DNA of 37,875 nucleotides from an uncultured virus (IMG/VR IMGVR_UViG_3300050030_000093) (Duplodnaviria > Heunggongvirae > Uroviricota > Caudoviricetes), in the IMG/VR virus record IMGVR_UViG_3300050030_000093; one strand, 5' to 3'. Under the pieces are notes generated by a model that saw only the letters and a list, made by a program, of their open reading frames with translations, was not told where the DNA came from and did not search any database. Positions 1 through 30,182 of this stretch are shown here, piece after piece. Position 1 is the stretch's first letter, and each line of letters starts with the position of its first letter. The position numbers were made by a program, and so were the translations under genes.

Positions 1-321
1 AGTGGGAAATTTACTTTTAATTGTATGTCTAATTTTATTTTTTGTTTCTTCACTATGTTTTCTTCTTTTATTATTATATTGTGCTGAACAACTTTGATTA
101 CAAAACTTTTTTTCATTACTTAATGTTTTATTAATGGATTTACCACAATTTTTACATAAAATAATTTCATGGTGTTGTTTTAAAACTTTAAGTCCCAATC
201 TAAATGCTCTATTGGTAAGTGTTCTATATGATACATTAAATTCTTTAGCTATTTCATTATAGTCTTTATTTAAGTTTATTAAACTTTTTAATTTATTATC
301 TAATTCATTATTCCATTTCAT
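1..321 (-). CDS. Probable homing endonuclease (N-terminal part; runs off the window start)
   Basis: Manual translation from ATG at 321: MKWNNELDNKLKSL...CKNCGK...FCNQSCSAQYNNKRRKHSEETKNKIRH..., open to base 1. Has Zn-finger-like cysteines and a NUMOD3-like HSEETKNKI motif; GTATTTAT motif at 336-343; lies just downstream of tRNA-Cys. The catalytic domain is not visible. Confidence 0.65.
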   Translation of the reverse strand, partial: MKWNNELDNKLKSLINLNKDYNEIAKEFNVSYRTLTNRAFRLGLKVLKQHHEIILCKNCGKSINKTLSNEKKFCNQSCSAQYNNKRRKHSEETKNKIRHTIKSKFPT

Positions 322-379
322 TTTTTTATTTTTATATAAATACTTTAAAAACGAGTAAAAAATAGGACTTGAACCTTCG

Positions 380-450
380 AGCCACCCAAGCGAATCGAAC
401 GCTTCTAATCTGTTTTGCAGACAGATACCTGACCAATCGGACAGGGTGGC
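380..450 (-). tRNA. tRNA-Cys(GCA)
   Basis: GCCACCC/GGGTGGC acceptor, U73, anticodon arm TCTGT-CTGCAAA-ACAGA, GTTCGATTC T loop. Confidence 0.93.
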
Positions 451-451
451 A

Positions 452-474
452 AAATTTCCAACATGTCAAAGACC
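452..474 (-). promoter_or_regulatory. rrn boxA-like antitermination element before tRNA cluster 1
   Basis: Minus strand GGTCTTTGACATGTTGGAAATTT. 21 nt are identical to 29752-29772. Resembles rRNA-operon boxA (TGCTCTTTAACA / GTTCTTTGA) and is preceded by a long hairpin (476-530). Confidence 0.6.
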
Positions 475-548
475 TTCTTACGGAGTTATATAAGGTGCAA
501 ACCTTATATGTTGTGATTATAAGCCGTAAGACTTATATTTTAAAGAAT

Positions 549-577
549 AAAAAAACCCGAATCTTGCGAATCGGGTT
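549..577 (-). terminator. Intrinsic terminator/attenuator 1
   Basis: AACCCGATTC-GCAA-GATTCGGGTT followed by a U run; nearly identical to 13292-13319. Confidence 0.85.
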
Positions 578-603
578 CTTGGTTTATTAAAAACTTTTCA
601 GTT

Positions 604-735
604 TTATCTCATAAGAAAACCAGAACCCCCATCATCTCCATTATTTCTGCCTGTAAAGTCTGAACAGAATATAGAAATTCCGTTGCGACTTGAGGTCGAT
701 GTTATAATGGCTGATATGTGCCTGTACGTTTTCAT
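604..735 (-). CDS. Putative attenuator leader peptide 1 (43 aa, MKTYRHISAIITSTSSRNGISIFCSDFTGRNNGDDGGSGFLMR)
   Basis: Short ORF between promoter and terminator. Its 3' end GGGTTCTGGTTT (617-628) is complementary, with one bulge, to the terminator-overlapping AAACCAAGAACCC (573-585). Confidence 0.7.
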   Translation of the reverse strand: MKTYRHISAIITSTSSRNGISIFCSDFTGRNNGDDGGSGFLMR

Positions 736-775
736 TGTTTATTTATTATAAGTTCGTTTTCTATTAAATACTTGG

Positions 776-805
776 CAAAGTTAAATAAAGTTTCAATACC
801 ACCAA
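776..805 (-). promoter_or_regulatory. Bacteroidota sigma-A type promoter (-33 TTTG / -7 TAACTTTG)
   Basis: TTTG-N18-TAACTTTG matches the TTTG...TAnnTTTG consensus. Confidence 0.7.
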
Positions 806-827
806 ACATTTTTTCAATTATTTTCAT

Positions 828-856
828 AAAAAAACCTCAGAAAATTTTCTGAGGTT
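828..856 (-). terminator. Intrinsic terminator after vWA gene
   Basis: AACCTCAGAAAA/TTTTCTGAGGTT inverted repeat plus U tract. Confidence 0.75.
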
Positions 857-880
857 CTTAAATATTTGAGTATCTGAATT

Positions 881-3139
881 TTAGATTTTAACTTCTTTTT
901 CTGATAAATCGAAAGTAAAGTTAAGAAGTTGTTTGTCAAGGGTTAATTCGAGAGAGTTTTCATCGAATGTTTTGAATTCCTTGAACCATTTTTTGCTCAA
1001 TATCAAAGCGAATTTAATCTGAGCAATTTCTTGCAATGCTTTCCTTCTTACTTTATTCAGTTCGTTGGATTTAGTAATCAGATAGGTTTTCAGCATTTCT
1101 TTCTGTTGTGCTTCTGAAAGAGTTTTGTACAATTCAGACTCTGTTACAGCAAGATATTTTTTAATTGCATCTACCATGACGTACTCGCTGAGTTTCAGAC
1201 TTGCACCGCTTTTTATTTTGGCAACAACGTCTTCAACTTTTGGCAAGCTGCTAAGACTCTTTATTTTAGTTTCAAGATTCACTGACATGTAGAAGTCTGT
1301 TGATTCTTCGGCATCAGTTAAAGGAGCAAAGCCGTTATAGTCGGTAATACCGATTGTTTTCAGCCAATCTGCAGCTTCCTGTCCGAGCAATTCAACAAAT
1401 GATTTACTTTCTTTCGGGAATAATGACTTCCTGTAATAATCGTAAACCTTCTTGTCTGCCTGGGTTTTCAGAAGTTCCCATTCCTGTACAGCCAAATCTT
1501 TTGCAGAAAGTGAACGAACCATACCTCTGTTTATAATAGGCAGAGAATTAAGGTCGACAACAATTATAGCTGAAAAATCTGCACCTGCACTTATTACTGC
1601 AAATGGTACGGAATTCGTTGTCAATAAATCAACAAGTTTGCTTGAATAACTTACTGGAAGTTTTTCAACGTTAACAATACCGTCCTTTATAAGAGTAAAG
1701 GTATTGTACTTGTAAGTAGCAACTTCATTGATTTTGAACTTGTTTTCAGGAAGTATTGCTTTTCCTTCAATACGAATACGAATACTGAGATTTGCACGTT
1801 TTTCATTCCATACCAAATCAGTCATTGAATAACCTCTGTCTGGATTGGTGTTGGTGAATTTAACCTCAACGTTCTTCTGCTTCAATTCTTCTGTGATTTT
1901 GTTGAGTTCTTCCACGTTTTTAGCCTCAGATAATCTCTTCTTGTCGGCTTCGCTAAGATTTTCGCCCCTTGCAACACGTTTCCTACCAATCCTGTTGTAA
2001 ACAAAATCAGGATGATTAGGATAAAAAAGACAACCATCGATATTGCCTAACTCTTCAATTAAGTTCATCAAGCAATACGCATTGTCATCAACCTTCTGAA
2101 TAGCACCCCTTCCATCAACAAAACGTTTTGCAGCATCAGCAACGCAGTCTTTGATTGCAGTTTTAAATGCGTTCAATTTCTGTTTACCAAATGCATTTGC
2201 AAGCATTTTGTAATAATGATTGTCGCCCAGAGCATAGAATACTCTCTCAGCCATTTCAGGCATAAAACGTTCAGAAAGTAAATAAATTGCAGCATATAAT
2301 GCAGTATCAGTAATTGATGCTTTTTCACCAATTTCTTTGGTTGAGAAAAAATATAATTCTTTTACATCATTGTTGACAGTTACTTTGTTGTTATCAATAT
2401 TATATACCAACACACTACCGTCAGAATCAATTGAAAACGCAAAATCATATAGATAATTATCTATAATATCTACAATGATTTTTTTACTACCACCGAGTTT
2501 TTTTGTAAATCCTTTAGCAATTACAACGTCATATTCTTCAAATCCAGAACAATCAATTTTTTCTGCCCCAAGAAGTTCACTTATTTGTGTAAGTTTTTTT
2601 GTGTCACAATAAAATCCATATTCCACTACAAGAGAAGCAGATAATTTTGGTGATATTTGTTTTACGGCATTTATAACGCTATTCCAAGACACATCATCAT
2701 TAGAGCAACCATCTGTCATAAAAATTAAAGAAAATAATCCCTTTGAATTATTTTTATTGATACGTTCAATTACATCATTGGCAAGTTCTAATGGTTTAGT
2801 AAATGCCGTTAAACCAATTGGCATTAAAAATTTATCGATGGCATTATTTAAATCATTAAGTTGTTTTAATGAATTTACGTGAACTTCCTCTTTCAGAATG
2901 CCAGCATCATTTCTACCCGAAAACCAAATAATTGATATTGTGTCTTCCTCACCCTTAATTAAATTAGAAATTTTATTTTTTAAATTTTTTCTAATTTCGG
3001 GAAGGTCATGAGACATAGAACCACTAACATCAATAATAATCAAATGATTAATACTTTTTGCCACTTCCGTAGTTGTGTTGGAATTAATCTCTTGAGTTAT
3101 GAGATTAAAGTCTTCATCAAATTTTACATACTTCTTCAT
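881..3139 (-). CDS. vWA-domain protein (752 aa)
   Basis: N-terminal MIDAS motif DVSGSM...T...MTDG; long C-terminal region not recognised. Confidence 0.8.
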   Translation of the reverse strand: MKKYVKFDEDFNLITQEINSNTTTEVAKSINHLIIIDVSGSMSHDLPEIRKNLKNKISNLIKGEEDTISIIWFSGRNDAGILKEEVHVNSLKQLNDLNNAIDKFLMPIGLTAFTKPLELANDVIERINKNNSKGLFSLIFMTDGCSNDDVSWNSVINAVKQISPKLSASLVVEYGFYCDTKKLTQISELLGAEKIDCSGFEEYDVVIAKGFTKKLGGSKKIIVDIIDNYLYDFAFSIDSDGSVLVYNIDNNKVTVNNDVKELYFFSTKEIGEKASITDTALYAAIYLLSERFMPEMAERVFYALGDNHYYKMLANAFGKQKLNAFKTAIKDCVADAAKRFVDGRGAIQKVDDNAYCLMNLIEELGNIDGCLFYPNHPDFVYNRIGRKRVARGENLSEADKKRLSEAKNVEELNKITEELKQKNVEVKFTNTNPDRGYSMTDLVWNEKRANLSIRIRIEGKAILPENKFKINEVATYKYNTFTLIKDGIVNVEKLPVSYSSKLVDLLTTNSVPFAVISAGADFSAIIVVDLNSLPIINRGMVRSLSAKDLAVQEWELLKTQADKKVYDYYRKSLFPKESKSFVELLGQEAADWLKTIGITDYNGFAPLTDAEESTDFYMSVNLETKIKSLSSLPKVEDVVAKIKSGASLKLSEYVMVDAIKKYLAVTESELYKTLSEAQQKEMLKTYLITKSNELNKVRRKALQEIAQIKFALILSKKWFKEFKTFDENSLELTLDKQLLNFTFDLSEKEVKI

Positions 3140-3184
3140 AATTATGATTTTAAATTAATTTACCGCAAATATATTAAATTAATA

Positions 3185-4267
3185 TTAATAAACAAATATA
3201 TTCAAACAATTTTTCATATTTTTAGGCATATGTTTGCAAATTTCATCTAACCATCCACTTTCACGTGTAATTCTATATGAAGTACTTGATTTCATTTGAA
3301 ATTCTTTTCTTGTTTTATATTTTAATGCTTCTTGTTGACACATTTCCTTTGTCCAATATCCATTTTCCTTTCTCCCATTTGTCATATGTAAACAAATTTC
3401 GTTAAGCCAATCATTACGATATGCTGCTGTATGTGCACCGCAAGATTTTTTTTGAAATTCGGATTTAGTCTTATATTTTAATGCTTCTTGTTGACATGTT
3501 TCTTTTGTCCATTTTACTTGACAACCGCCAATTGCACCAGTTTTTGCAATATTCAATACTTGCCAGCCATTTTTATAATAATTATCTACATAATATTGTT
3601 CATTTTGTTTTGCTTTTTCAATATTAATATATTTAGTTAGTTGTTTAAATATTGGTTTATGACTACAGACTTGAATATGCTTGTAAATTTGTGATTTATT
3701 GTCTACCAAATGTCTGGCAGTTCTTTTATTGAAATTGTACGTTAATCCGATATAAACAAAACCATCATCGAATTCAGCAGCATATGTACATCTTTTCTTT
3801 AAACTTCCAATGGTTGCCATATGTTGGCATATTTCATCAAGAAATTTGTTTTTAGTGGCGAATGCGTGTCCGCCACCACATTTTCGAGCAAACTCACTTC
3901 TCGAATTATATTTCAATGCCTCATTTTTACAGAGTTCTTTACTCCATTTAATTCTCAAAACGGTCATGTGTTGACAAATTTCATTAAGCCAACCATTTCT
4001 TTTTGCGGAAAGATATGCACCCATAGAACTTTGATTGAACATAGTTCTGGTATTATATTTAAGTGCCTCATGTTTACATGCTTCTTTAAACCAAATTTTA
4101 TTATATTGTGTCGGTCTTACCATGTGTTGGCATATCTCCTTTAACCACCCATTCTTCTGTGCAGTTATATATCCACTATTAGATTTTTTCTGAAACTCAA
4201 CTCTGGACATATATTTGAATGCTTCTGCAGTACAATTTTCCTTAGACCAATATCTATATTTTCCCAT
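3185..4267 (-). CDS. GIY-YIG endonuclease flanked by five W-x-K-E-x-C...E-I-C-x-H-M repeats
   Basis: CTY...VYIGLT...R...H...E...LN GIY-YIG core; 3 repeats N-terminal and 2 C-terminal. Confidence 0.8.
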   Translation of the reverse strand: MGKYRYWSKENCTAEAFKYMSRVEFQKKSNSGYITAQKNGWLKEICQHMVRPTQYNKIWFKEACKHEALKYNTRTMFNQSSMGAYLSAKRNGWLNEICQHMTVLRIKWSKELCKNEALKYNSRSEFARKCGGGHAFATKNKFLDEICQHMATIGSLKKRCTYAAEFDDGFVYIGLTYNFNKRTARHLVDNKSQIYKHIQVCSHKPIFKQLTKYINIEKAKQNEQYYVDNYYKNGWQVLNIAKTGAIGGCQVKWTKETCQQEALKYKTKSEFQKKSCGAHTAAYRNDWLNEICLHMTNGRKENGYWTKEMCQQEALKYKTRKEFQMKSSTSYRITRESGWLDEICKHMPKNMKNCLNIFVY

Positions 4268-4629: not shown

Positions 4630-4781
4630 TTTTCATTTTCAGTTGTGCTCTCCGGTTGTGTTGTAACTGGTTCGGGTGTTGGTTCGTTTGGTATTATTTG
4701 CTTCTCTTGACCCAATTGTTCTTCTGTTGGTTGCCAAGCAGGTTTCACATAATTTCGTTGTTCAAATTTTTCGTTTTCCAT
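4626..4781 (-). CDS. Hypothetical protein (51 aa, Pro/Glu/Thr-rich)
   Basis: Manual translation MENEKFEQRNYVKPAWQPTEEQLGQEKQIIPNEPTPEPVTTQPESTTENEK; ATGA overlap with the next ORF. Confidence 0.5.
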   Translation of the reverse strand: MENEKFEQRNYVKPAWQPTEEQLGQEKQIIPNEPTPEPVTTQPESTTENEK

Positions 4782-4802: not shown

Positions 4803-7271
4803 TTATTTCCTTATCATATGTGCTGTACATTCTTCAAACCAACCATTCTTTTTTGCTGTTCTATATGCATTATGATTTTTATTGTGCCATTCAGTTTTAG
4901 TTTTATATTTCATTGCATCAACAGCACAATTTTCTCTAATATTCCAATAACTTAATGGTTTTTGTTTTATCATGTGAGCAGTACATTCCTCTAACCAACT
5001 ATGCTTACGAGCAGCATTAACTGCACTGCCTTCATTATTCTGCCATTCTTTGATTGTTTTAAATTTCATTGCGCTTTTAATACATTTCTCCTTTGTCCAT
5101 AAATTCTTTTTGTTCATATGAAGAGTGCATTCTTCAAACCAATTATTTCTTTTTGCTGCATTACATGCACCACTACCACCTTTTATCCATTCATTTATTG
5201 TTTGAAATTTCTTAGCACTTTCAATACATAATTCCTTTGTCCATGAATTAAGAACCATTTTCATATGTTTAACACATTCATCGTACCAGCCTTCTCTTTT
5301 AGCAGCAGTATATGCACCACCCTCATTTATTCGCCACTCATTTATAGTTTGATATTTTTTAGCATTTTCAATACAACTTTCTTTTGTCCATGAGTTTCTT
5401 TTTTTCATGTGTGAGGTAATTTCATCAAGCCAACCATTTAGAAATGCCGCATTATATACACTTTGTTCATTTTTTTGCCATTCCGAATGTTCTGAATATC
5501 CCAATGCATTTTCAATACATTTTTCTTTAGTCCAATATCCAGACGGCTTTTGTGATTTTATTGTCATATGTTTGACACATTCATCGTACCAACCTTCTCT
5601 TTTGGCAGCATTATGTGCACCAGCAGCATTATTATTCCAATCAACAGGTCTTTGATATCTCGAAGCACTATCAATACATAATTCCTTTGTCCATCTAAAT
5701 AATTTCTCCATATGTTGTATGCATTCATCATACCAACCATTTGCTTGTGCAGCACGGCATGCACCACGTTCATTTTTTTCCCAATCAATAGGTCTTTGAT
5801 ATCTTGAAGCACTATCAACGCATCTTTGTCTGTTCCAAAATCCGCTTGGCATTGCTTTTAGAAACTCTGCCCGAACATCCCTAATTGTCGTAAATGCATA
5901 CGTATGAAGTAAAGAATCTTTCTTATGATATATGTCTTTGAAAAGTTCGAAGACTGGTAGTGCCGAAAAGTCTATTGGCGATAATCTCTTGACTGATTTC
6001 TTTCTGTTCGGGACAGCAGTGATGTCATTCGTATTATTACCACCGCCATTATTACCGTTGACATGTGGTCTTACGGGTATTTGCATGTCATTAAAGTTCT
6101 TCCCGTTAAAATGCGTGAAGTAATATTCGTCAGATAATGCCAAAACACCCGTCATAACGTACTTGTAATAATCACTGAGGGTGTTCGGGGCAACCTTGAA
6201 GAATAACTTCTGTAAGCCATTTGGATGCTTTCTAACGACTCTACAAAAGAGTTGATATACTCTGTCAACATTCATAGATGTTGTCATATCGACCACATTA
6301 ACGAGTTCTGGATAGTTAAATCCAAGTATACCTCTACCCACGACAATAAGTATGAGACAATCTGGGTCTGCTTTGAAATTTTCAATTTCCGTGGAGTCAT
6401 AGTCAATGTCTGAAATGCTCAGTGCGGATTTAACGCCAATTTTGTCAAAATAATTCTTAACTTGTATGGCTTGCCTTTGAGATTTACAAGCAATCATGGT
6501 TTTCTGCAAACGTTTCAAGGTAGGCAACCATTCGGGTAAAAGATTCATGTATTCATTACCTCTGATGCTCTTGAGTCTTTCAACAATCTTACCAATAAGG
6601 TCATCAAGTGTTTTCTTAGTCTCAGAATCTTTAAATTGAATGCTTTCTTTTAGTTCATCATTCTGGTTGTAATCGTATATGTCGAAGTTGTAACTACTCG
6701 TGGCTATTTCAACATAAACATCTGATACCATACCTTCGTCAAAGATAGTGTTCAGTGTTACGGGTATAATCGGGTGTTTCTCTCTTATGAATATTGAAGG
6801 AGTACCTGTAAGCAATAGTTGTCTGCGGGGTTTGGTCTTCTTGATGATGTCCTTTACCATTTTTTCACCAAAATAAAACTGATGTGCTTCGTCAACCACA
6901 AGCAGGTCAATCTTCTTGAGAGATTTTCTATTTAGAGTTTGCGGTAAGCAGACGTTCACGGCTTTGCTTTCATCATATTCACTGAAATTATCAGCCAACT
7001 TATATGTGAAGTCTGGTTTGATTTCTTCCAAGACATCATGAAATTGTGTACGTAATATGGTAGTACCGTGTGCCAACACAATTACTTTTGAATTGGGATT
7101 CTTCTGCAAGAAATCCTCAATGCAATGGATTGCCATTATTGTCTTACCAGCAGATGGGCAAGCAGCCAGTACTGTTATTTCCTGACTGCTTAGACTATCT
7201 TTGACTTTGTTTATTGTTTCTGTTTGGTATGCTAATACCTTGAGATTTCTACTTTCGAACCAATTATTCAT
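4803..7271 (-). CDS. SF2 (DEAH-box) helicase with seven C-terminal ~48-aa repeats
   Basis: Walker A AACPSAGKT, VVDEAH, LTGTP, motif VI QLFCRVVR; WTKExC...ECxxHM repeats. Confidence 0.88.
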   Translation of the reverse strand: MNNWFESRNLKVLAYQTETINKVKDSLSSQEITVLAACPSAGKTIMAIHCIEDFLQKNPNSKVIVLAHGTTILRTQFHDVLEEIKPDFTYKLADNFSEYDESKAVNVCLPQTLNRKSLKKIDLLVVDEAHQFYFGEKMVKDIIKKTKPRRQLLLTGTPSIFIREKHPIIPVTLNTIFDEGMVSDVYVEIATSSYNFDIYDYNQNDELKESIQFKDSETKKTLDDLIGKIVERLKSIRGNEYMNLLPEWLPTLKRLQKTMIACKSQRQAIQVKNYFDKIGVKSALSISDIDYDSTEIENFKADPDCLILIVVGRGILGFNYPELVNVVDMTTSMNVDRVYQLFCRVVRKHPNGLQKLFFKVAPNTLSDYYKYVMTGVLALSDEYYFTHFNGKNFNDMQIPVRPHVNGNNGGGNNTNDITAVPNRKKSVKRLSPIDFSALPVFELFKDIYHKKDSLLHTYAFTTIRDVRAEFLKAMPSGFWNRQRCVDSASRYQRPIDWEKNERGACRAAQANGWYDECIQHMEKLFRWTKELCIDSASRYQRPVDWNNNAAGAHNAAKREGWYDECVKHMTIKSQKPSGYWTKEKCIENALGYSEHSEWQKNEQSVYNAAFLNGWLDEITSHMKKRNSWTKESCIENAKKYQTINEWRINEGGAYTAAKREGWYDECVKHMKMVLNSWTKELCIESAKKFQTINEWIKGGSGACNAAKRNNWFEECTLHMNKKNLWTKEKCIKSAMKFKTIKEWQNNEGSAVNAARKHSWLEECTAHMIKQKPLSYWNIRENCAVDAMKYKTKTEWHNKNHNAYRTAKKNGWFEECTAHMIRK

Positions 7272-7335: not shown

Positions 7336-10300
7336 TTATCCACATTTTGAACTTCCACAACCTTTACAAACAAGACATCCTTCAATAAATTGAAGATTTT
7401 CACTTCCACATTCAGGGCATTTACCTCTTCCCTTTTCACCGTCCTTAATATATCTTTTTATTGTACGTGCTACGCCATTTTTCCAAGTATTAATATAGTC
7501 TTCTTTAAAGTTCAAAGAATCTATGAGTTCATATTGTTTAATTACTGGCATTCCATGTCTCATGATTCCCGAAATTAATTTAGCATAGTTCCAAAATTCG
7601 GGATTAAATGCTTGATTTAGTCCAGTATGAACTTGTTTTTCGCCATCACTATCAATATATTCAATATCATATCTTTTTATTTTGATTGGCTTGCTTTCTG
7701 CATCAATATCATCAATTATATTTTTAACTACTTCACATTCTTTCACGTGTGGTGGTAATTTGCTTAAACCATTTTCTAATTTACCTGTAAATATTTCATA
7801 TGGTCTGCCATCTTTCATACCTACAACAGCAATCCACTTTTCCAAATTATTTTGGAATCTATGAATTTCGGCTTTAAGTCTTTTTGGGCGTTTTGGCGCA
7901 TTATTTTCTTGAAGTTTTTCTTCTTTTCCTTCATTATTAATAAGAACACCACTGCGACTTTCATCACGATAAACAGTACAACCCTTACAACCACTTCGCC
8001 ATGCAGTTTCATACACTTTTGCAACAAGTTCTTCAGTTACATCTTTTGGTAGATTAACTGTTACAGAAATACTGTGGTCTACGTGACGTTGAATTCTACC
8101 CTGCATTTCAACCTTTTTAACCCAATCTACATCATTTGCAGTTGCCTTATAATATGGAGATTTTTTTACTATTTCATCACGTTGCTCATCAGTCATATTT
8201 CTGACTGCGTTTATATTATAATTATTAACATCCAGCCATATTTCAAATTTATGGTGAAATACCGGATATTCCTGCCATGCAATACCTTCGGCATCTTCAA
8301 AATCAGTTCTTACGTCTTTTTCTTGCGGATTGATTTTTCTGCGCCTTTTATATACTGGTGAAAAGCAAGGTTCAATTCCTGATGTGGTTTGAGTCATGAG
8401 ACTTGCTGTACCTGTTGGAGCAATTGTAAGTAGTGCGATGTTTCGCCTACCATATTTAATCATACTTTCATATAAATCGGGGTGTTCACTTTTTATGCGG
8501 AGAATAAAGGGATTATTCGCCTCACGTTTTGCATCGTATATTGGAAATGCGCCACGCTCCTTTGCCATTCTGATTGAAGAATCGTATGCATACAACTTTA
8601 AAGCCTTATGCACATTCTCGCTGAAAGTTGTTGCTTCATCAGTACCATAACGAAATCCAAGAGCTGCAAGCATATCACCTTCTGCAGTAACACCAAGTCC
8701 AGTTCTACGACCTCTAATGGTTTTATCCTTAATTCTTTCCCAAAGTCGGATTTCATATAGTTTTAAAAATTCGTCTTCGGGGTCTGAATTAATTTTAGCA
8801 AGAATCTGGTCAATTTTTTCAATTTCCAAATCGATTATATCGTCCATATAACGCATGGCAATTATCACATCGTTTACAAATAAATCCCAATCAAAATATG
8901 CGTTTTCTGTAAAAGGATATTTAACATAACCATATAAATTTAGTGATAATAAACGGCAACTATCGTCATTACAAAGAGGAATTTCACCACATCTTCGTGC
9001 AGAAATACCATTAACAATAATATTTCTACCCATATCTTCTTTAATACAATATACTGATTCATTGTTAATGTTTTTTATTACTATAACAGTATCTGTAAAT
9101 GATGATTTTATTTGAAAATTATGTTCAACATTAATTTTATCTTCTTTGTCTTTAAAACCTAAAAATCCGACACTATTTTTATATTTAACCAAAGAGCCAC
9201 CTAAACTAATTAATTCATATTGTATTTTTGTTTTGTATAATGAATTACCTCCACGACCATTGGGTAAACTTGTTAATTTACTATCTCTACGTTTATATAT
9301 ACCAAATATCATTCCGTTTGAATGAAGTATCATTTGAACTTTTCTTAGCATTTCTTCATTGCTCTGCGATAATCTAACAGTAAATCCACTTCTTTGAGTA
9401 CCTTGTACTGAACCATCACAATACATAAGTGCTGCAATATAAAATTTACCAATTTTTCTTGAAGAATTATTCATTATAAATTCAGGTACATCATGTTTGG
9501 TGTTATGATTAAATCCTACATTATTTAGTAATTTCGCCAACCATGCAGAAGAAATTCTAATTTTATTATATTTTTCACTACGTGAAACAAAATATTTACT
9601 CAGTTTCGCATCATTTTCATTATAAAAATCTCCATACTGAAGATATAAAATATCAATTAAACTTAATACGAATTTTTCCATTCTAAATCTATCATCACCC
9701 CAAAAATCCAAATGAGCACGATTACGTTTTTTATCAAATGTACCATCACCAGTTATTAATCCAATTAATGTTGCTAAAATTTCTTCATTGGTTTCAGGCA
9801 AACAACCAATAATTGAATCAAAAGCATTTGGTATTGCTATTAATATTTCATGTTCAGGAGTTAAATCTTTTGCTTCAATCATTCCCGTTGTAGTTGCAAT
9901 GTGATGGTCAGGTGTACATCTTAATTTAAAACCTTTAGATGTTATAATTTCAAGAATTTCGGCATTTTTTTGTGTTAAAAACACAGGACTTGCTATTCTG
10001 ATTAATGTTCCTTCTTGTGTGTTATCAATTTTCCAATTTTCTGGTTTTTCTTCACCATCATCAATATATGAAATTCTTCTATCAGAAACTATGTTTGTTG
10101 CTTTTATATCACATGTTGAATTTATAAATTTCGTTTCATTAATTGATGCTAAATCGCCAAATTTAACATATCCGTCTTCAGTTAATAAATATTCGCTTGC
10201 TGGAAAACATGGATTTGTTGAAGTAGTTTTATACCCTAAGTCTGCATAACAATCTGGAACACTTTCACGTATAACTTGGTCCCAGAATAAAATACCTGGT

Positions 10301-11103
10301 TCAGCAGAACGCCAAGCATTGAATATGATTTTCTTCCATAGCTTTTGTGCATCAATTTCTTTAGTAACTTTTGCTTGACCTTCAATTGGAAATTGCTGTT
10401 GATATGTTGTGCCTTGTGTTGCAGCAATCATAAAATCATCGTGGAGTTTTACTGATACGTTTGCACCAGTAACTTTTCCGGGAGTAAATTTGGCATCAAT
10501 AAATTTTTCTGAATCAGGATGTCTGATTGAAATACTTTCCATTAGAGCACCCCTGCGACCATCCTGTGCTACTTCCTTTGTACTGTTAGAGTATCTTTCC
10601 ATGAAAGGTACAACACCCGTAGAAGTGATTGCAGAGTTCTTTACGGGACTACCTGAAGGTCGTACAAATGAAAGGTCAAGACCTACTCCACCACGTCTTT
10701 TTTCTAATTGTACACATTCTTGGTCGAGTTTCAGAATTCCACCATAACTATCGCTTTCACCATCGTTTCCAATAACAAAACAATTACTGAGGCTTACAAC
10801 TTGGAGGGTATTACCGATTCCTGACATTGGTGAACCTTGTGGTACAATTCTTTCAAAATATTTTATTGTATCATAAATTTGTTCTTCAGTAAGAGGGTTG
10901 GGATATTTCGCTTCGATTCTCGCAAGTTCTTTTGCGATTCTATGATGCATATCATCTGGGTTCAGTTCGTAATAATTCTTATCGTCTTTTAAGCAGTATT
11001 TTTTCATCCAAACATGTGCTGCCAATTCATCTAATTTAAAATATTGTAATGCAGACTTTTCGACTTCTTGTTTGGGATAACTTTTGAGATTTTTTTCCGT
11101 CAT
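7336..11103 (-). CDS. nrdJ: Class II (adenosylcobalamin-dependent) ribonucleotide reductase with intein
   Basis: SNCFV, GGVG, NP|CGEIPL active site split by an insertion, TIAPTGT, TTSGIEP, KGCTVYR, C-terminal CPEC...CxxC Zn ribbon. Confidence 0.95.
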   Translation of the reverse strand: MTEKNLKSYPKQEVEKSALQYFKLDELAAHVWMKKYCLKDDKNYYELNPDDMHHRIAKELARIEAKYPNPLTEEQIYDTIKYFERIVPQGSPMSGIGNTLQVVSLSNCFVIGNDGESDSYGGILKLDQECVQLEKRRGGVGLDLSFVRPSGSPVKNSAITSTGVVPFMERYSNSTKEVAQDGRRGALMESISIRHPDSEKFIDAKFTPGKVTGANVSVKLHDDFMIAATQGTTYQQQFPIEGQAKVTKEIDAQKLWKKIIFNAWRSAEPGILFWDQVIRESVPDCYADLGYKTTSTNPCFPASEYLLTEDGYVKFGDLASINETKFINSTCDIKATNIVSDRRISYIDDGEEKPENWKIDNTQEGTLIRIASPVFLTQKNAEILEIITSKGFKLRCTPDHHIATTTGMIEAKDLTPEHEILIAIPNAFDSIIGCLPETNEEILATLIGLITGDGTFDKKRNRAHLDFWGDDRFRMEKFVLSLIDILYLQYGDFYNENDAKLSKYFVSRSEKYNKIRISSAWLAKLLNNVGFNHNTKHDVPEFIMNNSSRKIGKFYIAALMYCDGSVQGTQRSGFTVRLSQSNEEMLRKVQMILHSNGMIFGIYKRRDSKLTSLPNGRGGNSLYKTKIQYELISLGGSLVKYKNSVGFLGFKDKEDKINVEHNFQIKSSFTDTVIVIKNINNESVYCIKEDMGRNIIVNGISARRCGEIPLCNDDSCRLLSLNLYGYVKYPFTENAYFDWDLFVNDVIIAMRYMDDIIDLEIEKIDQILAKINSDPEDEFLKLYEIRLWERIKDKTIRGRRTGLGVTAEGDMLAALGFRYGTDEATTFSENVHKALKLYAYDSSIRMAKERGAFPIYDAKREANNPFILRIKSEHPDLYESMIKYGRRNIALLTIAPTGTASLMTQTTSGIEPCFSPVYKRRRKINPQEKDVRTDFEDAEGIAWQEYPVFHHKFEIWLDVNNYNINAVRNMTDEQRDEIVKKSPYYKATANDVDWVKKVEMQGRIQRHVDHSISVTVNLPKDVTEELVAKVYETAWRSGCKGCTVYRDESRSGVLINNEGKEEKLQENNAPKRPKRLKAEIHRFQNNLEKWIAVVGMKDGRPYEIFTGKLENGLSKLPPHVKECEVVKNIIDDIDAESKPIKIKRYDIEYIDSDGEKQVHTGLNQAFNPEFWNYAKLISGIMRHGMPVIKQYELIDSLNFKEDYINTWKNGVARTIKRYIKDGEKGRGKCPECGSENLQFIEGCLVCKGCGSSKCG
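8992..10209 (-). mobile_element. Intein with LAGLIDADG homing endonuclease (406 aa) at the RNR active-site Cys
   Basis: Begins CFPASEYLLT after NP; block B TPDH; LIGLITGDG and AALMYCDG motifs; ends VYCI...IIVNGISARR before C-GEIPL. Confidence 0.9.
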
Positions 11104-13291: not shown

Positions 13292-13319
13292 AAAAAACCC
13301 GAATCTTTCGAATCGGGTT
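13292..13319 (-). terminator. Intrinsic terminator/attenuator 2
   Basis: AACCCGATTC-GAAA-GATTCGGGTTTTTT, about 8 nt upstream of tRNA-Tyr. Confidence 0.85.
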
Positions 13320-13344
13320 CTTAATATCTTTAAAAGTATATCTA

Positions 13345-13440
13345 TTACATGCCTATACTTTTGGACACAGTATTCCCGATTCCTATAAAGTGCTTTTTAT
13401 AAGATTTTTTACCGTAATAATATGTACCAAATGTAATCAT
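13345..13440 (-). CDS. Putative attenuator leader peptide 2 (31 aa, MITFGTYYYGKKSYKKHFIGIGNTVSKSIGM)
   Basis: TAT TAT TAC GGT AAA AAA TCT TAT AAA AAG run; internal GAATCGGG (13375-13382) is complementary to terminator 5' arm CCCGATTC (13310-13317). Confidence 0.8.
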   Translation of the reverse strand: MITFGTYYYGKKSYKKHFIGIGNTVSKSIGM

Positions 13441-13479
13441 TGCTTTATTTTCTAATTGTTTGTTTTAAATATCAAGTGA

Positions 13480-13510
13480 CAAATGTAGTAATAAATACCG
13501 AACTTGCAAA
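13480..13510 (-). promoter_or_regulatory. Bacteroidota-type promoter (TTTG-N19-TACATTTG) with embedded GTATTTAT
   Basis: Consensus match upstream of leader 2. Confidence 0.65.
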
Positions 13511-21710: not shown

Positions 21711-21817
21711 TAGCGAAGATGGGAGTCGAACCCACACGGACATTACTGCCCACGGGATTTGATTTGCTCTATTCGAAGCACTAAGTCCAGCGTGTCTACC
21801 AATTCCACCACTACGCC
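21711..21817 (-). tRNA. tRNA-Leu-type gene with 21-nt insertion in the anticodon loop (intron-containing or pseudogene)
   Basis: GGCGTAG TG GTGGAATTGGTAGACAC G CTGGA CTTAG[23 nt]TCCCG, long V-arm, GTGGG-TTCGACT-CCCAT, A73. Confidence 0.7.
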
Positions 21818-21818
21818 A

Positions 21819-22283
21819 TTATTTTTTATTTGTTGCATTTTTTCCTCTGTGTGTTTCTGTTTGACTATGACAATTTGGACACAACATTTTTAAGTTCGAC
21901 AACAAATGATTGGTTCTATCTCCATCAACGTGGTCTAATTCCATTTCCAATTTCTTTCTATGCCACTTATTTTTTTGTCCACATTCTTCACATTCATTTT
22001 TTTTATAACCTTCACCGACTAATCTGTTTTTTAATTTAAATGTTTGATATTCTGGATGTTTACCTTCAAATATTATTTCTTCAATTGGTATTATTTTTGA
22101 GGGTCTTTTTCTTGTACCCTTTCCCGATTGATTTGTTTTATAACAATTTAAAATTATTGCTCTTCGTTTAAAACTATTGAAATGTATTTTTAATTTTGCA
22201 GCAGCTTGCGCCATGCTTGTTGATGATTTGCATACACTAATAAAATATTTATCATTTATTCTATCTTTAATTTGTTTTGGCAT
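21819..22283 (-). CDS. HNH endonuclease
   Basis: CEECG...MELDHVDGDRTNHLLSNLKMLCPNCH. Confidence 0.92.
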   Translation of the reverse strand: MPKQIKDRINDKYFISVCKSSTSMAQAAAKLKIHFNSFKRRAIILNCYKTNQSGKGTRKRPSKIIPIEEIIFEGKHPEYQTFKLKNRLVGEGYKKNECEECGQKNKWHRKKLEMELDHVDGDRTNHLLSNLKMLCPNCHSQTETHRGKNATNKK

Positions 22284-22343: not shown

Positions 22344-23390
22344 TTATTTATAGTTTTTTATTTTTCTTAAGTCTAAGCCACAATAAATCTCTTTACTTAG
22401 AAATTCTGACGATATGTTATTTAAAATGTCAAACAATCGATATCTCCATCTATTATCTGAACCCCAATTATCTTCTGAATCTCTAATAAATATAGGATAT
22501 ATTGTAGCTGGTTTTCCATCAGAGTCAGTAAATATGCCTTCATTCATAATCCTCTTATCAGTTACTTTCCAAAAGAAATTAATTGGTATTGTGACATAAT
22601 GTGGTTGATTATTATGTTTCAATATGATAATAAATACCTTATTTTCGGCATCTAAATTCACGTAAATACCTTCGTCATTGAAAGGAAAATTAATTTCTTT
22701 TTTCCTTTCCAAACACAGATAGGGAGTCAAATAACCAGTGAAAGAATCATCATCCATTTTATCCAATAGTGATTCATTTTGTTCATTGGCAATAATATAT
22801 GTTAATAAAAACAATCTAATTGTGTCAACATTAATTAGCTTTATTATTCTTATATCAAAATGGGTTGATAGAAAAAGATATGCACTTTTAAATAATCCTA
22901 AATGAGTTTCTTTAATAAGAAGTCTATCTGATAATGTCAGATTTTCTATTGTGAATGAATTGTTTTTACTAAAATAATCTGAAAGTGATTTATATTCATT
23001 CCCCTTAACTCTTTTACCATCAGAAACTATTAATTTTTCTTTTTGATAATTTAATTTCACTTGAAATGGTGCAATAACTCCTTTTAATTTTAAATTGGCA
23101 ACCAAATCATCTTTAATTTCTTTTTTCATATAGAAATTATCAAGCATGAATGTTTTGTTGGTCTTTTCTTCAATAGTTCCAAAACCACAATTACATGTAT
23201 GACATACAGGTGTTGTTCTTATACCACCCCATGCTATTGGTGGGACGTGTTCATCAGTTAAAACTTGAGTGTTATTGGGAAATAACGATAAACATATTGG
23301 GCATGGATATTCGGTGGGATTTTCATAGAATCCCGATAATTTTGCACCTTCGACACCAAAATTAAAAGCTAATTCTCTATTATATTTCAT
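22344..23390 (-). CDS. Protein with N-terminal HNH-like nuclease domain
   Basis: CPIC...LTDEHVPPIAWGG...VCHTCN; long unrecognised C-terminus. Confidence 0.7.
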   Translation of the reverse strand: MKYNRELAFNFGVEGAKLSGFYENPTEYPCPICLSLFPNNTQVLTDEHVPPIAWGGIRTTPVCHTCNCGFGTIEEKTNKTFMLDNFYMKKEIKDDLVANLKLKGVIAPFQVKLNYQKEKLIVSDGKRVKGNEYKSLSDYFSKNNSFTIENLTLSDRLLIKETHLGLFKSAYLFLSTHFDIRIIKLINVDTIRLFLLTYIIANEQNESLLDKMDDDSFTGYLTPYLCLERKKEINFPFNDEGIYVNLDAENKVFIIILKHNNQPHYVTIPINFFWKVTDKRIMNEGIFTDSDGKPATIYPIFIRDSEDNWGSDNRWRYRLFDILNNISSEFLSKEIYCGLDLRKIKNYK

Positions 23391-25102: not shown

Positions 25103-25147
25103 TATTTTATTATAAATACTGTGGAAGTGCGGAAAAGTTTGTGGAAG

Positions 25148-25497
25148 TGGAGCAGAAGGGAGTTGAACCCTTGTCCAGTCATGCGACTAATACGTTTTCT
25201 ACAAGTTTATCTGAATTTTCTAATTCAGCGAAATATCTGATGTTTGCGGAACATCAACAATCCGTCTTGTCTTTTGCTTCCTTAAGCCGGAAGGTTCTTT
25301 GCTGAGTTTTTTGTTTCCTTATGCTGCGATTGCGAGTTCAGCGTTTCTTGCGAATACTGCATTACCTCTCGTAAGAGAAGTTGGAATAGACATTATGTCT
25401 TCTGCGTTTGTTGTTTTGAACCTTTTTAACGTAGTCTGATTCAACTACCACTTGCTTACTATACCACTCTGCCACGCTGTCAAAACCAGGCTGCCCC
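25148..25497 (-). ncRNA. ssrA: tmRNA
   Basis: GGGGCAG/CTGCTCC-A acceptor with G3.U70, TTTTGAC, GGGTTCAACTCCC T arm; internal tag ORF 25319-25405 AEDIMSIPTSLTRGNAVFARNAELAIAA*. Confidence 0.93.
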
Positions 25498-27293: not shown

Positions 27294-27365
27294 CACGTCT
27301 GGAAGTAATCGAAACCTCATCCACGGGTTTGGGAGCCGTTATCTTAGCCATTAGACGACAGACGT
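27294..27365 (-). tRNA. tRNA-Trp(CCA), atypical (C33, C31.C39 mismatch)
   Basis: ACGTCTG/CAGACGT, G73, ACGGC-TCCCAAA-CCCGT; a Gly(CCC) register is possible but fits worse. Confidence 0.7.
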
Positions 27366-27374
27366 ATTTTATTG

Positions 27375-27447
27375 CACACCGGGAGAGGCTCGAACTCCCG
27401 ACCTTTGCTTTTGGAGAGCACTATTCTACCAACTGAACTACCGATGT
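27375..27447 (-). tRNA. tRNA-Trp(CCA)
   Basis: ACATCGG/CCGGTGT, G73, loop CTCCAAA. Confidence 0.9.
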
Positions 27448-28158
27448 GTTAATTTGTTTTTCATAGAATTTAAGCCATTTACGTATTGTATTATCCGAAA
27501 CGCCATATTTTTTTCCTGTTGCAGTATATCCACCAGAAAAAGTAATATTATTAATTAGTTCACCATATGTTGGTCGTGATTTAACCTTACGTAAATTTTC
27601 ATGATGGCATTTTTGACATTTAGTACTATTATTTTTTATCTGAGCACCACATGAACAATAATTAATGTTTTCATGTTTTTTATATTTTTTCTTATCAACA
27701 TTTTTTCCACAATATGTGGATGTCTGTGAATGACAATTTGGACACAACACTTTTAAATTTTCTAAACGATAATCATTATTAATGCCATTAATGTGGTCTA
27801 AATGCAGACTTAATTTTTCTCCAAACCAAATTTCACTCTGACCACATTTTTCACACTTTCTTTCTTTTAATCCAAATTCAAACAATTTTAGTTTTAATCT
27901 ATGTGTATTAGTATATGTGGAATTAACAACTAAGAATTTTTTAATAAATTCTTCTTTGCTGTATTTTTGATGCAGTTTTTTATTTTTATTCCATCCCATT
28001 CCCAAAAAATGCGATGTATCAATATTATATTCATTGAATTTTTTTAATATTGTTTTATAGTTTCCACCTGCAGGTTTCAATTTAAGTAATTTAAGCACAT
28101 TAGCAATTGAATTACTTTCTTTTACAAATCGTGTTAAAACTTCTTTATTATATTTCAT
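27421..28158 (-). CDS. HNH endonuclease with C-terminal HTH
   Basis: CEKCG...LHLDHINGINNDYRLENLKVLCPNCH; GKKYGVSDNTIRKW; stop inside tRNA-Trp. Confidence 0.92.
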   Translation of the reverse strand: MKYNKEVLTRFVKESNSIANVLKLLKLKPAGGNYKTILKKFNEYNIDTSHFLGMGWNKNKKLHQKYSKEEFIKKFLVVNSTYTNTHRLKLKLFEFGLKERKCEKCGQSEIWFGEKLSLHLDHINGINNDYRLENLKVLCPNCHSQTSTYCGKNVDKKKYKKHENINYCSCGAQIKNNSTKCQKCHHENLRKVKSRPTYGELINNITFSGGYTATGKKYGVSDNTIRKWLKFYEKQINTSVVQLVE

Positions 28159-28888: not shown

Positions 28889-28963
28889 CACTCCCGGAGG
28901 TATTCGAAACCTCTATTTTACATGGGTGACAGCCAAGTTCTTCACCAAGAAGCCTACGAGAGT
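28889..28963 (-). tRNA. tRNA-Asp(GTC)
   Basis: ACTCTCG/CGGGAGT, G73, loop CTGTCAC. Confidence 0.83.
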
Positions 28964-29592
28964 ATTGTATGTTTATTATAAAATTTAATCCATTTTCTTA
29001 TTGCATTGTCACTTACACCATATTTTTTTCCAGTTCCAGTAAATCCCAATTCTTTTATTTCATTTTGAAGTTGTTCGAATGATGGACGTTTAACTTTACG
29101 TTGAATAACAGATTGTTCTAAACGTGTAATTTTCTTTTTTTTATTTCGTTTTACATTTTTTCCACTAAATGTTGGTAAGGTTGCGTTACAATTAGGACAA
29201 ACAATTCTCAAATTTTCAAGTCTATGGTCATTATTTATCCCATTAATATGGTCAAGAATTAAACTCATGTGTTCACCATGCCAATTTTCATCTTGTCCAC
29301 ATAACTCACATTTACGTTCTTTTATTCCTTCATCATACAATCTTTCTTTTAAATTTGTCGTATTGTATGTTGAGCCAGATATTAATATTTTTGATAGTGG
29401 TGTTTTAATAAATTTATTTGAACGAACATTTCCGTTATTTGTTCCGAAATGTGATATATCAATATTATGTTGATTAATATATTTTTTTATTGTTATTCTA
29501 TTACCGTATAATTTATTACCATATAATTTAAAGCATGTTTCGGTAGTGCTATTTGATTCTGCAATAATTGCTTTTAATTTATCTATGTCCAT
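28954..29592 (-). CDS. HNH endonuclease with C-terminal HTH
   Basis: CELCG...LILDHINGINNDHRLENLRIVCPNCN; start placed at MDIDK after GTATTTAT; stop inside tRNA-Asp. Confidence 0.92.
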   Translation of the reverse strand: MDIDKLKAIIAESNSTTETCFKLYGNKLYGNRITIKKYINQHNIDISHFGTNNGNVRSNKFIKTPLSKILISGSTYNTTNLKERLYDEGIKERKCELCGQDENWHGEHMSLILDHINGINNDHRLENLRIVCPNCNATLPTFSGKNVKRNKKKKITRLEQSVIQRKVKRPSFEQLQNEIKELGFTGTGKKYGVSDNAIRKWIKFYNKHTILS

Positions 29593-29664
29593 AGCAAAGT
29601 GTTTTATATAAATACGTGATAGTTCGGCAAAGATAAACAATAATTATCATATAATCAAACATTG

Positions 29665-29751: not shown

Positions 29752-29774
29752 AAATTTCCAACATGTCAAAGAAC
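29752..29774 (-). promoter_or_regulatory. rrn boxA-like element before tRNA cluster 3
   Basis: GTTCTTTGACATGTTGGAAATTT, repeated at 452-474; preceded by a TTGGACAA/TTGTCTAA stem. Confidence 0.6.
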
Positions 29775-29786
29775 TTTAGACAATCT

Positions 29787-29918
29787 TTAAAACTTTTCGA
29801 ACCAAACTTTGCTTGTCCAAGCATTATAGTATTGGTGTTGTCTTGTTGCATAATTACTTCCGATTCTATGTTTGAAGGAAGACCTTATTGCGTGTATAAA
29901 ATATTTAATCGTTTCCAT
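29787..29918 (-). CDS. Possible 43-aa peptide between attenuator 3 and boxA
   Basis: Manual translation METIKYFIHAIRSSFKHRIGSNYATRQHQYYNAWTSKVWFEKF; A-rich upstream context. Confidence 0.4.
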   Translation of the reverse strand: METIKYFIHAIRSSFKHRIGSNYATRQHQYYNAWTSKVWFEKF

Positions 29919-29946
29919 TTTATTTTTCCTTTAATTGTTTAAAAAC

Positions 29947-29979
29947 AAAAAACCCGACCATTTTGCGACAGTCGGGTTT
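29947..29979 (-). terminator. Intrinsic terminator/attenuator 3
   Basis: AAACCCGACTGT-CGCAA-AATGGTCGGGTTTTTT. Confidence 0.85.
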
Positions 29980-30014
29980 CTTTATTAAAGAAAGGAGGTT
30001 GTAATATCAAAGTA

Positions 30015-30107
30015 TTACCCGACTGTACATAGCTTATCCTCTTCGGCTGCCCATAATAGGACATCCACCATGAGGACTGCCATCAATATGTCGAATAATT
30101 TTTTCAT
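30015..30107 (-). CDS. Putative attenuator leader peptide 3 (30 aa, MKKLFDILMAVLMVDVLLWAAEEDKLCTVG)
   Basis: 3' end ACAGTCGGGT (30017-30026) is perfectly complementary to terminator 5' arm ACCCGACTGT (29968-29977). Confidence 0.75.
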   Translation of the reverse strand: MKKLFDILMAVLMVDVLLWAAEEDKLCTVG

Positions 30108-30152
30108 TGTTGTTTCTTTTAAATTTGTTGTTTCTTTCATTTAAATACTTGG

Positions 30153-30182
30153 CAAAGATAGTAAAGTTTTCTTAATTCCAAA
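30153..30182 (-). promoter_or_regulatory. Bacteroidota-type promoter (TTTG-N18-TATCTTTG)
   Basis: Consensus match; downstream CTTTGCCAAGTATTTAA is identical to the locus 1 promoter. Confidence 0.7.

Follow-up and report, generated by a model that had tools for sequence, protein, structure and literature searches.

The DNA stretch analysed in this work, hereafter the window, comprises 37,875 nucleotides (nt) of an uncultured Caudoviricetes virus (IMG/VR record IMGVR_UViG_3300050030_000093) and corresponds to bases 62001-99875 of this 99,875-bp record. Close to its first base lies a short leader unit placed immediately upstream of a transfer RNA (tRNA) gene, tRNA-Cys, which heads a long tRNA array, and it is this unit, together with its sister units in the same genome and in related phages, that we consider here. 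The whole analysis is computational, and all coordinates refer to the minus strand and are numbered in the window unless they are given as genome positions (Table 1).

Along the minus strand from 857 to 379 we found, in this order, a terminator, a promoter, a 43-codon open reading frame (ORF), an antiterminator/terminator region, a hairpin region, a 21-nt box and tRNA-Cys. The initial annotation had named most of these elements, i.e., a promoter sharing a short sequence with the tRNA-Asp locus, a 43-amino-acid (aa) ORF rich in Ser, Ile (three ATA), Thr, Gly, Arg and Asn with one Cys, a terminator nearly identical to that of the tRNA-Tyr locus, a leader 3' end that pairs with the base of the terminator 5' arm, a long hairpin, a boxA and tRNA-Cys, and each of them stands in the light of the data presented below.

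The terminator at the upstream border is predicted to insulate the unit from the gene of the 752-aa protein. The promoter follows a pattern which we take to be the Bacteroidota consensus (TTTG, 19 nt, TAnnTTTG) and which has 16 matches in the genome versus 4.7 ± 1.8 in shuffled sequences. The sequence common to this promoter and the tRNA-Asp locus is a 17-mer at 780-764, overlapping the promoter, with an exact second copy at 30157-30141 (0.41 expected even when up to 3 mismatches are allowed). The leader ORF begins 40 nt after the promoter -7 box, and a recount of its residues after the start codon (7 Ser, 5 Ile of which three are ATA, 4 Thr, 6 Gly, 4 Arg, 3 Asn, 3 Phe and 1 Cys) agrees with the composition given above. 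The leader RNA is more structured than its shuffles (z -4.4); in Rfam it matches no family at threshold, and the sub-threshold matches to small RNAs stem from the terminator hairpin.

Table 1. Features of the tRNA-Cys leader unit, its surroundings and its sister units in the window
Feature	Position	Strand	Remarks
Start of a 264-aa ORF between tRNA-Cys and tRNA-Asn	1..321	-	helix-turn-helix-like N-terminus, Cys-rich motifs
tRNA-Cys(gca), first array gene	379..450	-	ARAGORN; Rfam, 46.5 bits
boxA-type box, 21 nt, adjoining the first tRNA	452..472	-	exact repeat at 29772-29752
Structured spacer	477..536	-	alternative folds: one long hairpin or two smaller ones
Intrinsic terminator (putative attenuator)	549..580	-	hairpin 580-551, T-run to 549
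Predicted antiterminator, 3' strand	573..585	-	overlaps 7 nt (579-573) of the terminator 5' arm
Leader ORF, 43 codons + stop	604..735	-	ORF reading; frame and codon set kept in 18 distinct relatives
Predicted antiterminator, 5' strand	617..628	-	12-nt leader tail, codons 36-40, 11-22 nt before the stop codon
Bacteroidota-type promoter pattern TTTG-N19-TAnnTTTG	776..806	-	-33 TTTG 806-803, -7 TAnnTTTG 783-776
Intrinsic terminator ending the upstream 752-aa gene	828..857	-	direct reading and terminator scan
Upstream 752-aa vWA-domain gene	881..3139	-	vWA domain match
Tyr/Lys sister unit	13292..13510	-	promoter 13510-13480, leader ORF 13440-13345, terminator from 13320
Asp-class sister unit (Asp/Glu/Val/Leu/Ala/Trp/Met)	29752..30182	-	promoter 30182-30153, leader ORF 30107-30015, terminator from 29979

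Over 44 nt, the terminator of the unit and the one at 13335-13292 share 86% identity (repeat family D20). In folds of the transcript that stop at the terminator loop, the leader tail 628-617 pairs with 585-573 through 12 bp with one bulge, and this antiterminator pairing is present in both the minimum-energy and the centroid folds of the whole 5' leader before the 3' arm of the terminator exists. In the fold of a short piece the antiterminator reaches -19.5 kcal/mol (z -2.8; 1 of 200 shuffles as good), and the pairing of the tail with its own terminator arm amounts to -17.3 kcal/mol versus -11.6 ± 2.5 for shuffled tails, 5 of 200 of which reach this value. In the full-length fold the terminator appears. 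Since the antiterminator takes up nucleotides 579-573 of the terminator arm, among them the three C whose partners are the GGG in the 3' arm, only one of the two structures can form at a time. The long hairpin formed inside the leader ORF leaves 628-617 free.

From the unit the initial annotation had deduced that a larger array continues beyond base 1 of the window, and from the leader codons it had predicted that this array would be enriched in Ser, Ile, Thr, Gly, Arg, Asn and Phe tRNAs and hold few for Glu, Trp, Pro, Val or Gln. Both expectations were borne out in the whole record, in which ARAGORN recognized 32 tRNA genes and one transfer-messenger RNA (tmRNA) gene, all on one common strand. 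Eighteen further tRNA genes follow tRNA-Cys on the same strand over ~13 kb (genome 61544-49339), in the order Asn, Ile, Ser, Ser, Phe, Phe, Gly, Gly, Ile, Asn, Thr, Thr, Arg, Arg, Arg, Gly, Ser and tRNA(cta), that is, two each for Asn, Ile, Phe and Thr and three each for Ser, Gly and Arg besides tRNA(cta). All 17 sense tRNAs thus belong to the seven amino acids named, and none of those detected by ARAGORN in the array serves Glu, Trp, Pro, Val or Gln. Under a conservative null, in which seven amino acids are drawn from the 11 unserved by the tRNAs visible in the window, the arithmetic chance of the exact prediction is 1 in 330. Rfam confirmed the array genes, and no terminator-like sites were found on the array strand inside the array beyond two that are tRNA T-arms.

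With Cys, the array serves eight amino acids, to which 33 of the 42 leader residues after the start codon belong. Applying simple wobble rules, 30 of the 42 codons are read by array tRNAs, and 14 of the 15 sense anticodon species of the array have a cognate codon in the leader. Among 3258 windows of 42 codons taken from the long ORFs of the genome, only 9 reach 30 codons and 18 reach 14 species. A codon alignment of 11 leaders of this type showed that AGT, CGC/CGT, GGA/GGG, ATA, TGT, GGC and AGA are constant or nearly so, each of these being cognate to a different array isoacceptor. The variable core columns hold chemically unlike residues (e.g., Thr, Ile, Phe, Gly) that are still within the set; in columns where set residues are the majority, 146 of 218 minority residues are in the set versus 49.5% expected from random non-synonymous neighbours. 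Across 18 distinct relatives, the in-set fraction ranges from 72 to 90%. Judging by these alignments, the leader ORF behaves as a list of codons and not as a folded peptide. An argument from composition only was considered and rejected as sufficient, as small ORFs are already 48% in-set on average; the composition of the leader alone is unusual, yet not decisive.

A blastn search of window bases 1-3200 against phage records gave no match. Relatives of the neighbouring 752-aa protein were found in 21 viral loci, and 13 of the 20 loci analysed share the tRNA order after that gene. For the comparison of the tRNA regions we used the genome of the window together with five related phage records (G001-G005), three of which are complete (327-357 kb), which gave 23 units in six phages. 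In the five related records, four units occur in one conserved order. Their tRNA blocks are Pro/His/Gln (class 1), Asp/Glu/Val/Leu/Ala/Trp followed by tmRNA, Leu and Met (class 2, the Asp class), Tyr/Lys (class 3) and (Thr) Cys/Asn/Ile/Ser/Phe/Gly/Thr/Arg ending in tRNA(cta) (class 4, the Cys class), so that each of the 20 amino acids falls into exactly one of the four sets, which comprise 3, 7, 2 and 8 of them. In each of the 23 units a short ORF is followed, 20-38 nt past its end, by a terminator and then by a tRNA block, whose beginning lies 34-342 nt from the first base of the terminator hairpin, and in 19 of them the strict form of the promoter pattern lies 22-57 nt ahead of the leader ATG. 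In nine of the units the first tRNA begins at most 50 nt after the start of the terminator hairpin, and in the window a pattern scan found no promoter pattern between 549 and 451; these short distances and the lack of the pattern leave little room for a separate tRNA promoter.

The codons of the leaders follow the same partition. In Pro/His/Gln leaders, codons for just these three amino acids form a run, and Tyr/Lys leaders have three consecutive Tyr codons and pairs of Lys. Own-set residues make up 422 of 698 in the pooled leaders of the six phages and 63 of 101 in this genome, for which random partitions of the same group sizes give 30.0 ± 6.6; none of 100,000 such partitions reaches the observed values, either pooled or in any single phage. 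The terminators of all four classes have a common core. In order to follow the pairing of tail and terminator, the last 48 nt of each ORF were compared with its own terminator 5' arm, using dinucleotide shuffles as reference. Tail and arm of the same unit pair in all 23 cases, with energies between -10.3 and -22.1 kcal/mol; in 21 of them no more than 5 of 200 shuffled tails are as good, the exceptions being 26/200 and 13/200. Cognate tail-arm pairs were better than within-class swaps in 20,000 of 20,000 permutations.

Besides the Cys-class unit, the window carries a Tyr/Lys and an Asp-class unit (Table 1). In the former, tRNA-Tyr is located ~8 nt past the T-run, while the latter has an upstream ATG at 30140 and, before tRNA-Asp, the same 21-nt box as the Cys-class unit. 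Some peculiarities of single units can be noted. An extra 43-codon ORF (29917-29786, minus strand) is located between the Asp-class terminator and the box, and it was seen only here and in near-identical copies. The related contig L172 possesses a truncated second Cys-class leader of 30 codons, without a terminator, ~880 nt upstream of the complete one (leader matches at 3852-3878 and 4730-4756 of the locus). In G001 (locus L047, C1:46001-64000, ~3570-3800), ~250 nt of GC-richer sequence, absent in the other phages, lie between the promoter and the Pro/His/Gln leader and may represent an inserted RNA element.

Downstream of the attenuator, the spacer 536-477 can fold as one long hairpin, in which 530-524 pair with 483-477 around an inner hairpin at 509-488, or alternatively as two smaller ones. 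It is followed by the 21-nt box, which has two exact copies in the whole genome, one before tRNA-Cys and one before tRNA-Asp, and no others even when up to 5 substitutions are allowed. The exact 21-mer was found in 23 viral stretches, in all of which (23/23) a tRNA begins 0-41 nt downstream. In turn, an 18-mer of the box occurs in 108 bacterial-genome stretches, nearly all from Bacteroidota. In 12 of 20 loci inspected with Rfam, it is situated between 16S and 23S, downstream of the spacer tRNAs and ~30-100 nt ahead of 23S; the remaining 8 loci hold no rRNA inside the locus. A 16S gene starting after the box in the bacterial loci was also considered and rejected: a primer-like search found none within the flanks, and Rfam placed the box before 23S. 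According to PMC10250234, a second boxB-boxA-boxC set is found ahead of 23S in the rrn operons of E. coli, where boxA is sufficient for the antitermination complex to form, and boxA RNA is recognised by NusB-NusE (PMC3177189). The position before 23S in Bacteroidota rrn operons thus supports the assignment of the 21-nt box as an rrn-type boxA. By analogy, the spacer 536-477 is placed like the boxB of an rrn-type boxB-boxA arrangement and might have a corresponding function. As the box is located 3' of the terminator, it cannot account for read-through of the terminator 580-549.

We propose that the unit between 806 and 451 is a ribosome-mediated transcription attenuator that senses a shortage of decoding capacity, a reading to which we assign a probability of about 0.75. 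It draws on the mutually exclusive structures, the conserved ORF with its frame and codon set, the co-variation of tail and terminator arm and the three sister classes that follow the same rule. Host RNA polymerase would start ~35 nt before the leader ATG. A ribosome reading smoothly to the end of the ORF would cover 628-617, so that the terminator 580-551 forms and transcription stops at ~549. If the ribosome stalls for want of matching charged tRNAs, with its P site at or before ~codon 30, the strand 628-617 would stay free and pair with 585-573, and the polymerase would read through; 24 of codons 2-30 specify the eight amino acids of the array. Beyond the terminator, boxA would recruit host factors of the NusB/NusE type and render the polymerase processive along the 13 kb of tRNA genes, which are structured and untranslated. 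If translation were lost generally, the array would likewise be switched on, since the untranslated transcript also folds into the antiterminator. We infer the translation of the leader, the stall-driven read-through and the expression of the 13-kb array as one transcript.

Extended to the four classes, each leader would control access to the tRNA block that serves its portion of the 20 amino acids, and the Cys-class unit would also govern the suppressor-like tRNA(cta) with which the largest block ends. The evidence leaves about evenly balanced the wider proposition that the whole tRNA complement of this group of presumably Bacteroidota-infecting phages is run by a four-leader circuit, in which each leader lists its set nearly isoacceptor by isoacceptor, opens its own terminator when ribosomes slow down on these codons or when translation collapses and makes use of a borrowed boxA, and which acts as a sensor of host tRNA depletion. 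Such a circuit would respond to codon-usage mismatch, starvation or tRNA-cutting defence nucleases and supply replacement tRNAs on demand.

Several observations weigh against an attenuator of this kind. As to the switch, the untranslated leader prefix itself folds into the antiterminator, so the off state would rely on efficient translation, and no anti-antiterminator of the trp 1:2 type was found in the leader folds. Towards the leader end, the final codons belonging to the set (Gly, Gly, Ser, Gly, Phe) are themselves part of the antiterminator strand, and a ribosome stalled on them would promote termination and not read-through. In the Tyr/Lys class, 24-48 nt separate the tail element from the end of the stop codon, so that a ribosome at the stop would leave this element uncovered. 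As to the codons, Arg(tcg) is the sole array species that lacks a cognate codon in the leader, and of the 173 small ORFs with 35-50 codons, 3 equal the leader in the fraction of matching codons and 2 in the number of species. Further, 6 of 433 small ORFs of this AT-rich genome match the in-set fraction of the leader. Tyr/Lys leaders contain more Cys-class residues (88/178) than residues of their own set (57/178), and only 11 of 29 codons of the Asp-class leader of this genome are read by its own array; the latter low match is explained by the fact that tRNAs for Val, Ala and Leu(CUN), which are present in relatives, were not found in this genome. As to transcription, a promoter pattern inside the array (genome 58349-58319) means that the array may not be a single transcript, and the 95-nt spacer ahead of tRNA-Cys could hide a promoter of another type. 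Finally, RNA contigs from three peat metatranscriptomes match small, scattered parts of window bases 1-3200, none of them over the leader or the terminator. The one over tRNA-Cys, a contig of 232 nt from one of these sets (window 198-429, 100% identical, depth 16.8), spans the 3' part of the tRNA and the beginning of the ORF at 321 and ends in the tRNA body, short of the anticodon loop. Such contigs cannot show transcript ends or levels, hence we regard the metatranscriptome data as neutral toward the attenuator model.

The best-placed alternative, which we nevertheless hold to be unlikely, is antitermination by a factor, either a phage protein similar to lambda Q or N or a Nus/boxA complex, timed in infection and with an ORF that senses nothing. 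A promoter followed by a short leader and a strong terminator before a long block does resemble lambda pR'-tR', a box of the rrn type is present, and one factor could serve all four classes through the common terminator core. Yet the box is located downstream of the terminator, where its RNA has not been made when the polymerase reaches that site, and its exact form precedes only tRNA-Cys and tRNA-Asp, the Tyr/Lys unit having none. Moreover, a factor leaves unexplained both the class-specific codons of the leaders, which no random partition equalled, and the co-variation of tail and terminator arm.

A slightly lower probability still is given to the small ORFs being functional micro-proteins with terminators of their own, the tRNAs arising from constitutive leak-through. 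This would agree with the conservation of the peptides in genomes whose neighbouring 752-aa protein is only 57-73% identical, and with the hydrophobic, helix-like appearance of the Asp-class leader. It fits poorly with variable columns that exchange chemically unlike residues while staying inside the tRNA set and with several codons fixed at the level of the isoacceptor; in addition, the 3' ends of the ORFs follow the terminator sequence rather than any peptide motif, and a strong terminator directly ahead of each tRNA block would be wasteful without regulation.

Less probable is a sensor made of RNA only, similar to a T-box, which would bind uncharged tRNA and for which the open frame would be a by-product. 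The pronounced structure of the leader and the precedent of T-boxes, which combine tRNA sensing with antitermination, speak for it, whereas neither an Rfam family at threshold nor a T-box match up to an E-value of 1 (searched over 440-860) was obtained. Frame, start codon and stop-to-terminator spacing are all conserved, and a single RNA would need to read up to 15 tRNAs. That a spurious AT-rich ORF merely stands beside an ordinary terminator is scarcely credible, for the small ORFs of matching in-set fraction mentioned above have to be set against the successful prediction outside the window, the partition tests, the co-variation and 18 conserved relatives.

Attenuation by the ribosome, the reading we prefer, has its closest counterparts in the multivalent leader-peptide attenuators of the thr, ilvGMEDA and ilvBN operons of E. 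coli and Salmonella, next to those of trp, his, leu and pheA. These have in common with the units described here a short promoter-proximal ORF with regulatory codons, an intrinsic terminator, an antiterminator strand masked by the ribosome and several amino acids per leader. In contrast to them, the putative targets here are 19 tRNA genes with interspersed ORFs and not biosynthesis or synthetase genes, the system is phage-borne, eight amino acids and 14 isoacceptors are packed into 43 codons, and four leaders cover 20 amino acids. As no hairpin of the 1:2 type was found here, lack of translation would give read-through. The pheM leader attenuator of pheST in E. coli senses one amino acid, regulates a synthetase and is chromosomal. 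It is similar in that a gene of the decoding machinery is attenuated and a shortage of charged tRNA raises the relieving component, but it differs in its target (a synthetase instead of tRNA genes), in the number of amino acids (one versus eight) and in its chromosomal instead of phage location. The T-box riboswitch directly binds one specific tRNA and has no ORF; it likewise senses tRNA status and operates a terminator/antiterminator switch in a 5' leader, while the unit studied here matches no T-box model and has a conserved frame. In lambda late control (pR'-tR'-Q), a protein modifies the polymerase. There, too, a strong terminator soon after the promoter gates a long block, whereas here the codon content and the RNA pairing point to the ribosome as the sensor. 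With the rrn boxB-boxA-boxC and lambda nut elements, the Cys-class unit shares a box that corresponds to the second rrn set, a hairpin before it and long untranslated RNA genes after it; it differs in that the box is phage-borne, precedes tRNA arrays, follows a putative attenuator, is missing in the Tyr/Lys unit of this genome and is predicted to bind NusB/NusE.

The principle of leader-peptide attenuation is described in PMC1183508. In the open full-text literature on attenuation, leader peptides and phage tRNAs that we searched, we found no description of leader-peptide attenuation of tRNA genes. The class of mechanism is known, and the tRNA-gene target and the four-way design predicted here are likely to be new. 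Phage tRNA genes are usually viewed as an aid to codon usage or as substitutes for host tRNAs that defence nucleases have cleaved, and to our knowledge little is known about the control of their expression. A replacement role for cleaved tRNAs is stated for PARIS in PMC12409363. If the proposed reading is true, the phage would gauge decoding capacity through the ribosome and make each tRNA set on demand, and leader-peptide attenuation would extend to RNA genes of the decoding machinery, with four leaders spanning the code. The leader also gives a rule for predicting the tRNAs that follow, which worked once here, blind, and such units might provide compact parts for synthetic tRNA-supply sensors. 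The rrn boxA and the type of promoter point to the use of host polymerase and to a Bacteroidota host, the phage having been seen in peat metagenomes according to the run labels.

Regarding the ORFs among the tRNA genes, the initial annotation had labelled the one starting at 321 as a probable homing endonuclease, a label that we could not sustain: the only match was to a treble-clef domain below threshold (20.4 bits versus a cut-off of 26.8), and comparison of the ORF with the HNH ORFs of the window revealed no similarity. The latter, encoding HNH endonucleases, are located among the tRNA genes at 21819-22283, 22344-23390, 27421-28158 and 28954-29640 (minus strand). Their upstream regions and first codons are alike and also resemble the region before the ORF at 321.

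The tRNA complement itself has several unusual members. A degenerate tRNA-like copy with a 6-nt anticodon loop, added by Rfam, is found beside tRNA-Gly(gcc) (genome C1:54753-54826). The tRNA(cta), which would read TAG (genome C1:49339-49411), closes the largest array here and in G002, G004 and G005. Another odd tRNA, at 21711-21817 (minus strand; ARAGORN with introns allowed, Rfam 34 bits), has the anticodon tca and an intron of 21 nt. When TAG or TGA is read through, the ORF cover of the 100-kb record rises from 0.71 to 0.77 and 0.79, respectively, with no clear signal of recoding. A second tRNA-Trp(cca) at 27294-27365 (minus strand) was missed by the default ARAGORN run. Within the Asp-class tRNA block, the tmRNA gene (25145-25497, minus strand; Rfam 110 bits) encodes a tag of 28 residues; ARAGORN detected tmRNA at the same place in G001, G002 and G005 and not in G003 and G004.

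Elsewhere in the window, an intein that bears a LAGLIDADG domain interrupts the large subunit of ribonucleotide reductase (7336-11103, minus strand). A helicase-like ORF at 4803-7271 contains diverged tandem repeats of 144-159 nt (4804-5823), and repeats of 33 nt (34716-35111) are located within the ORF at 34485-35126.

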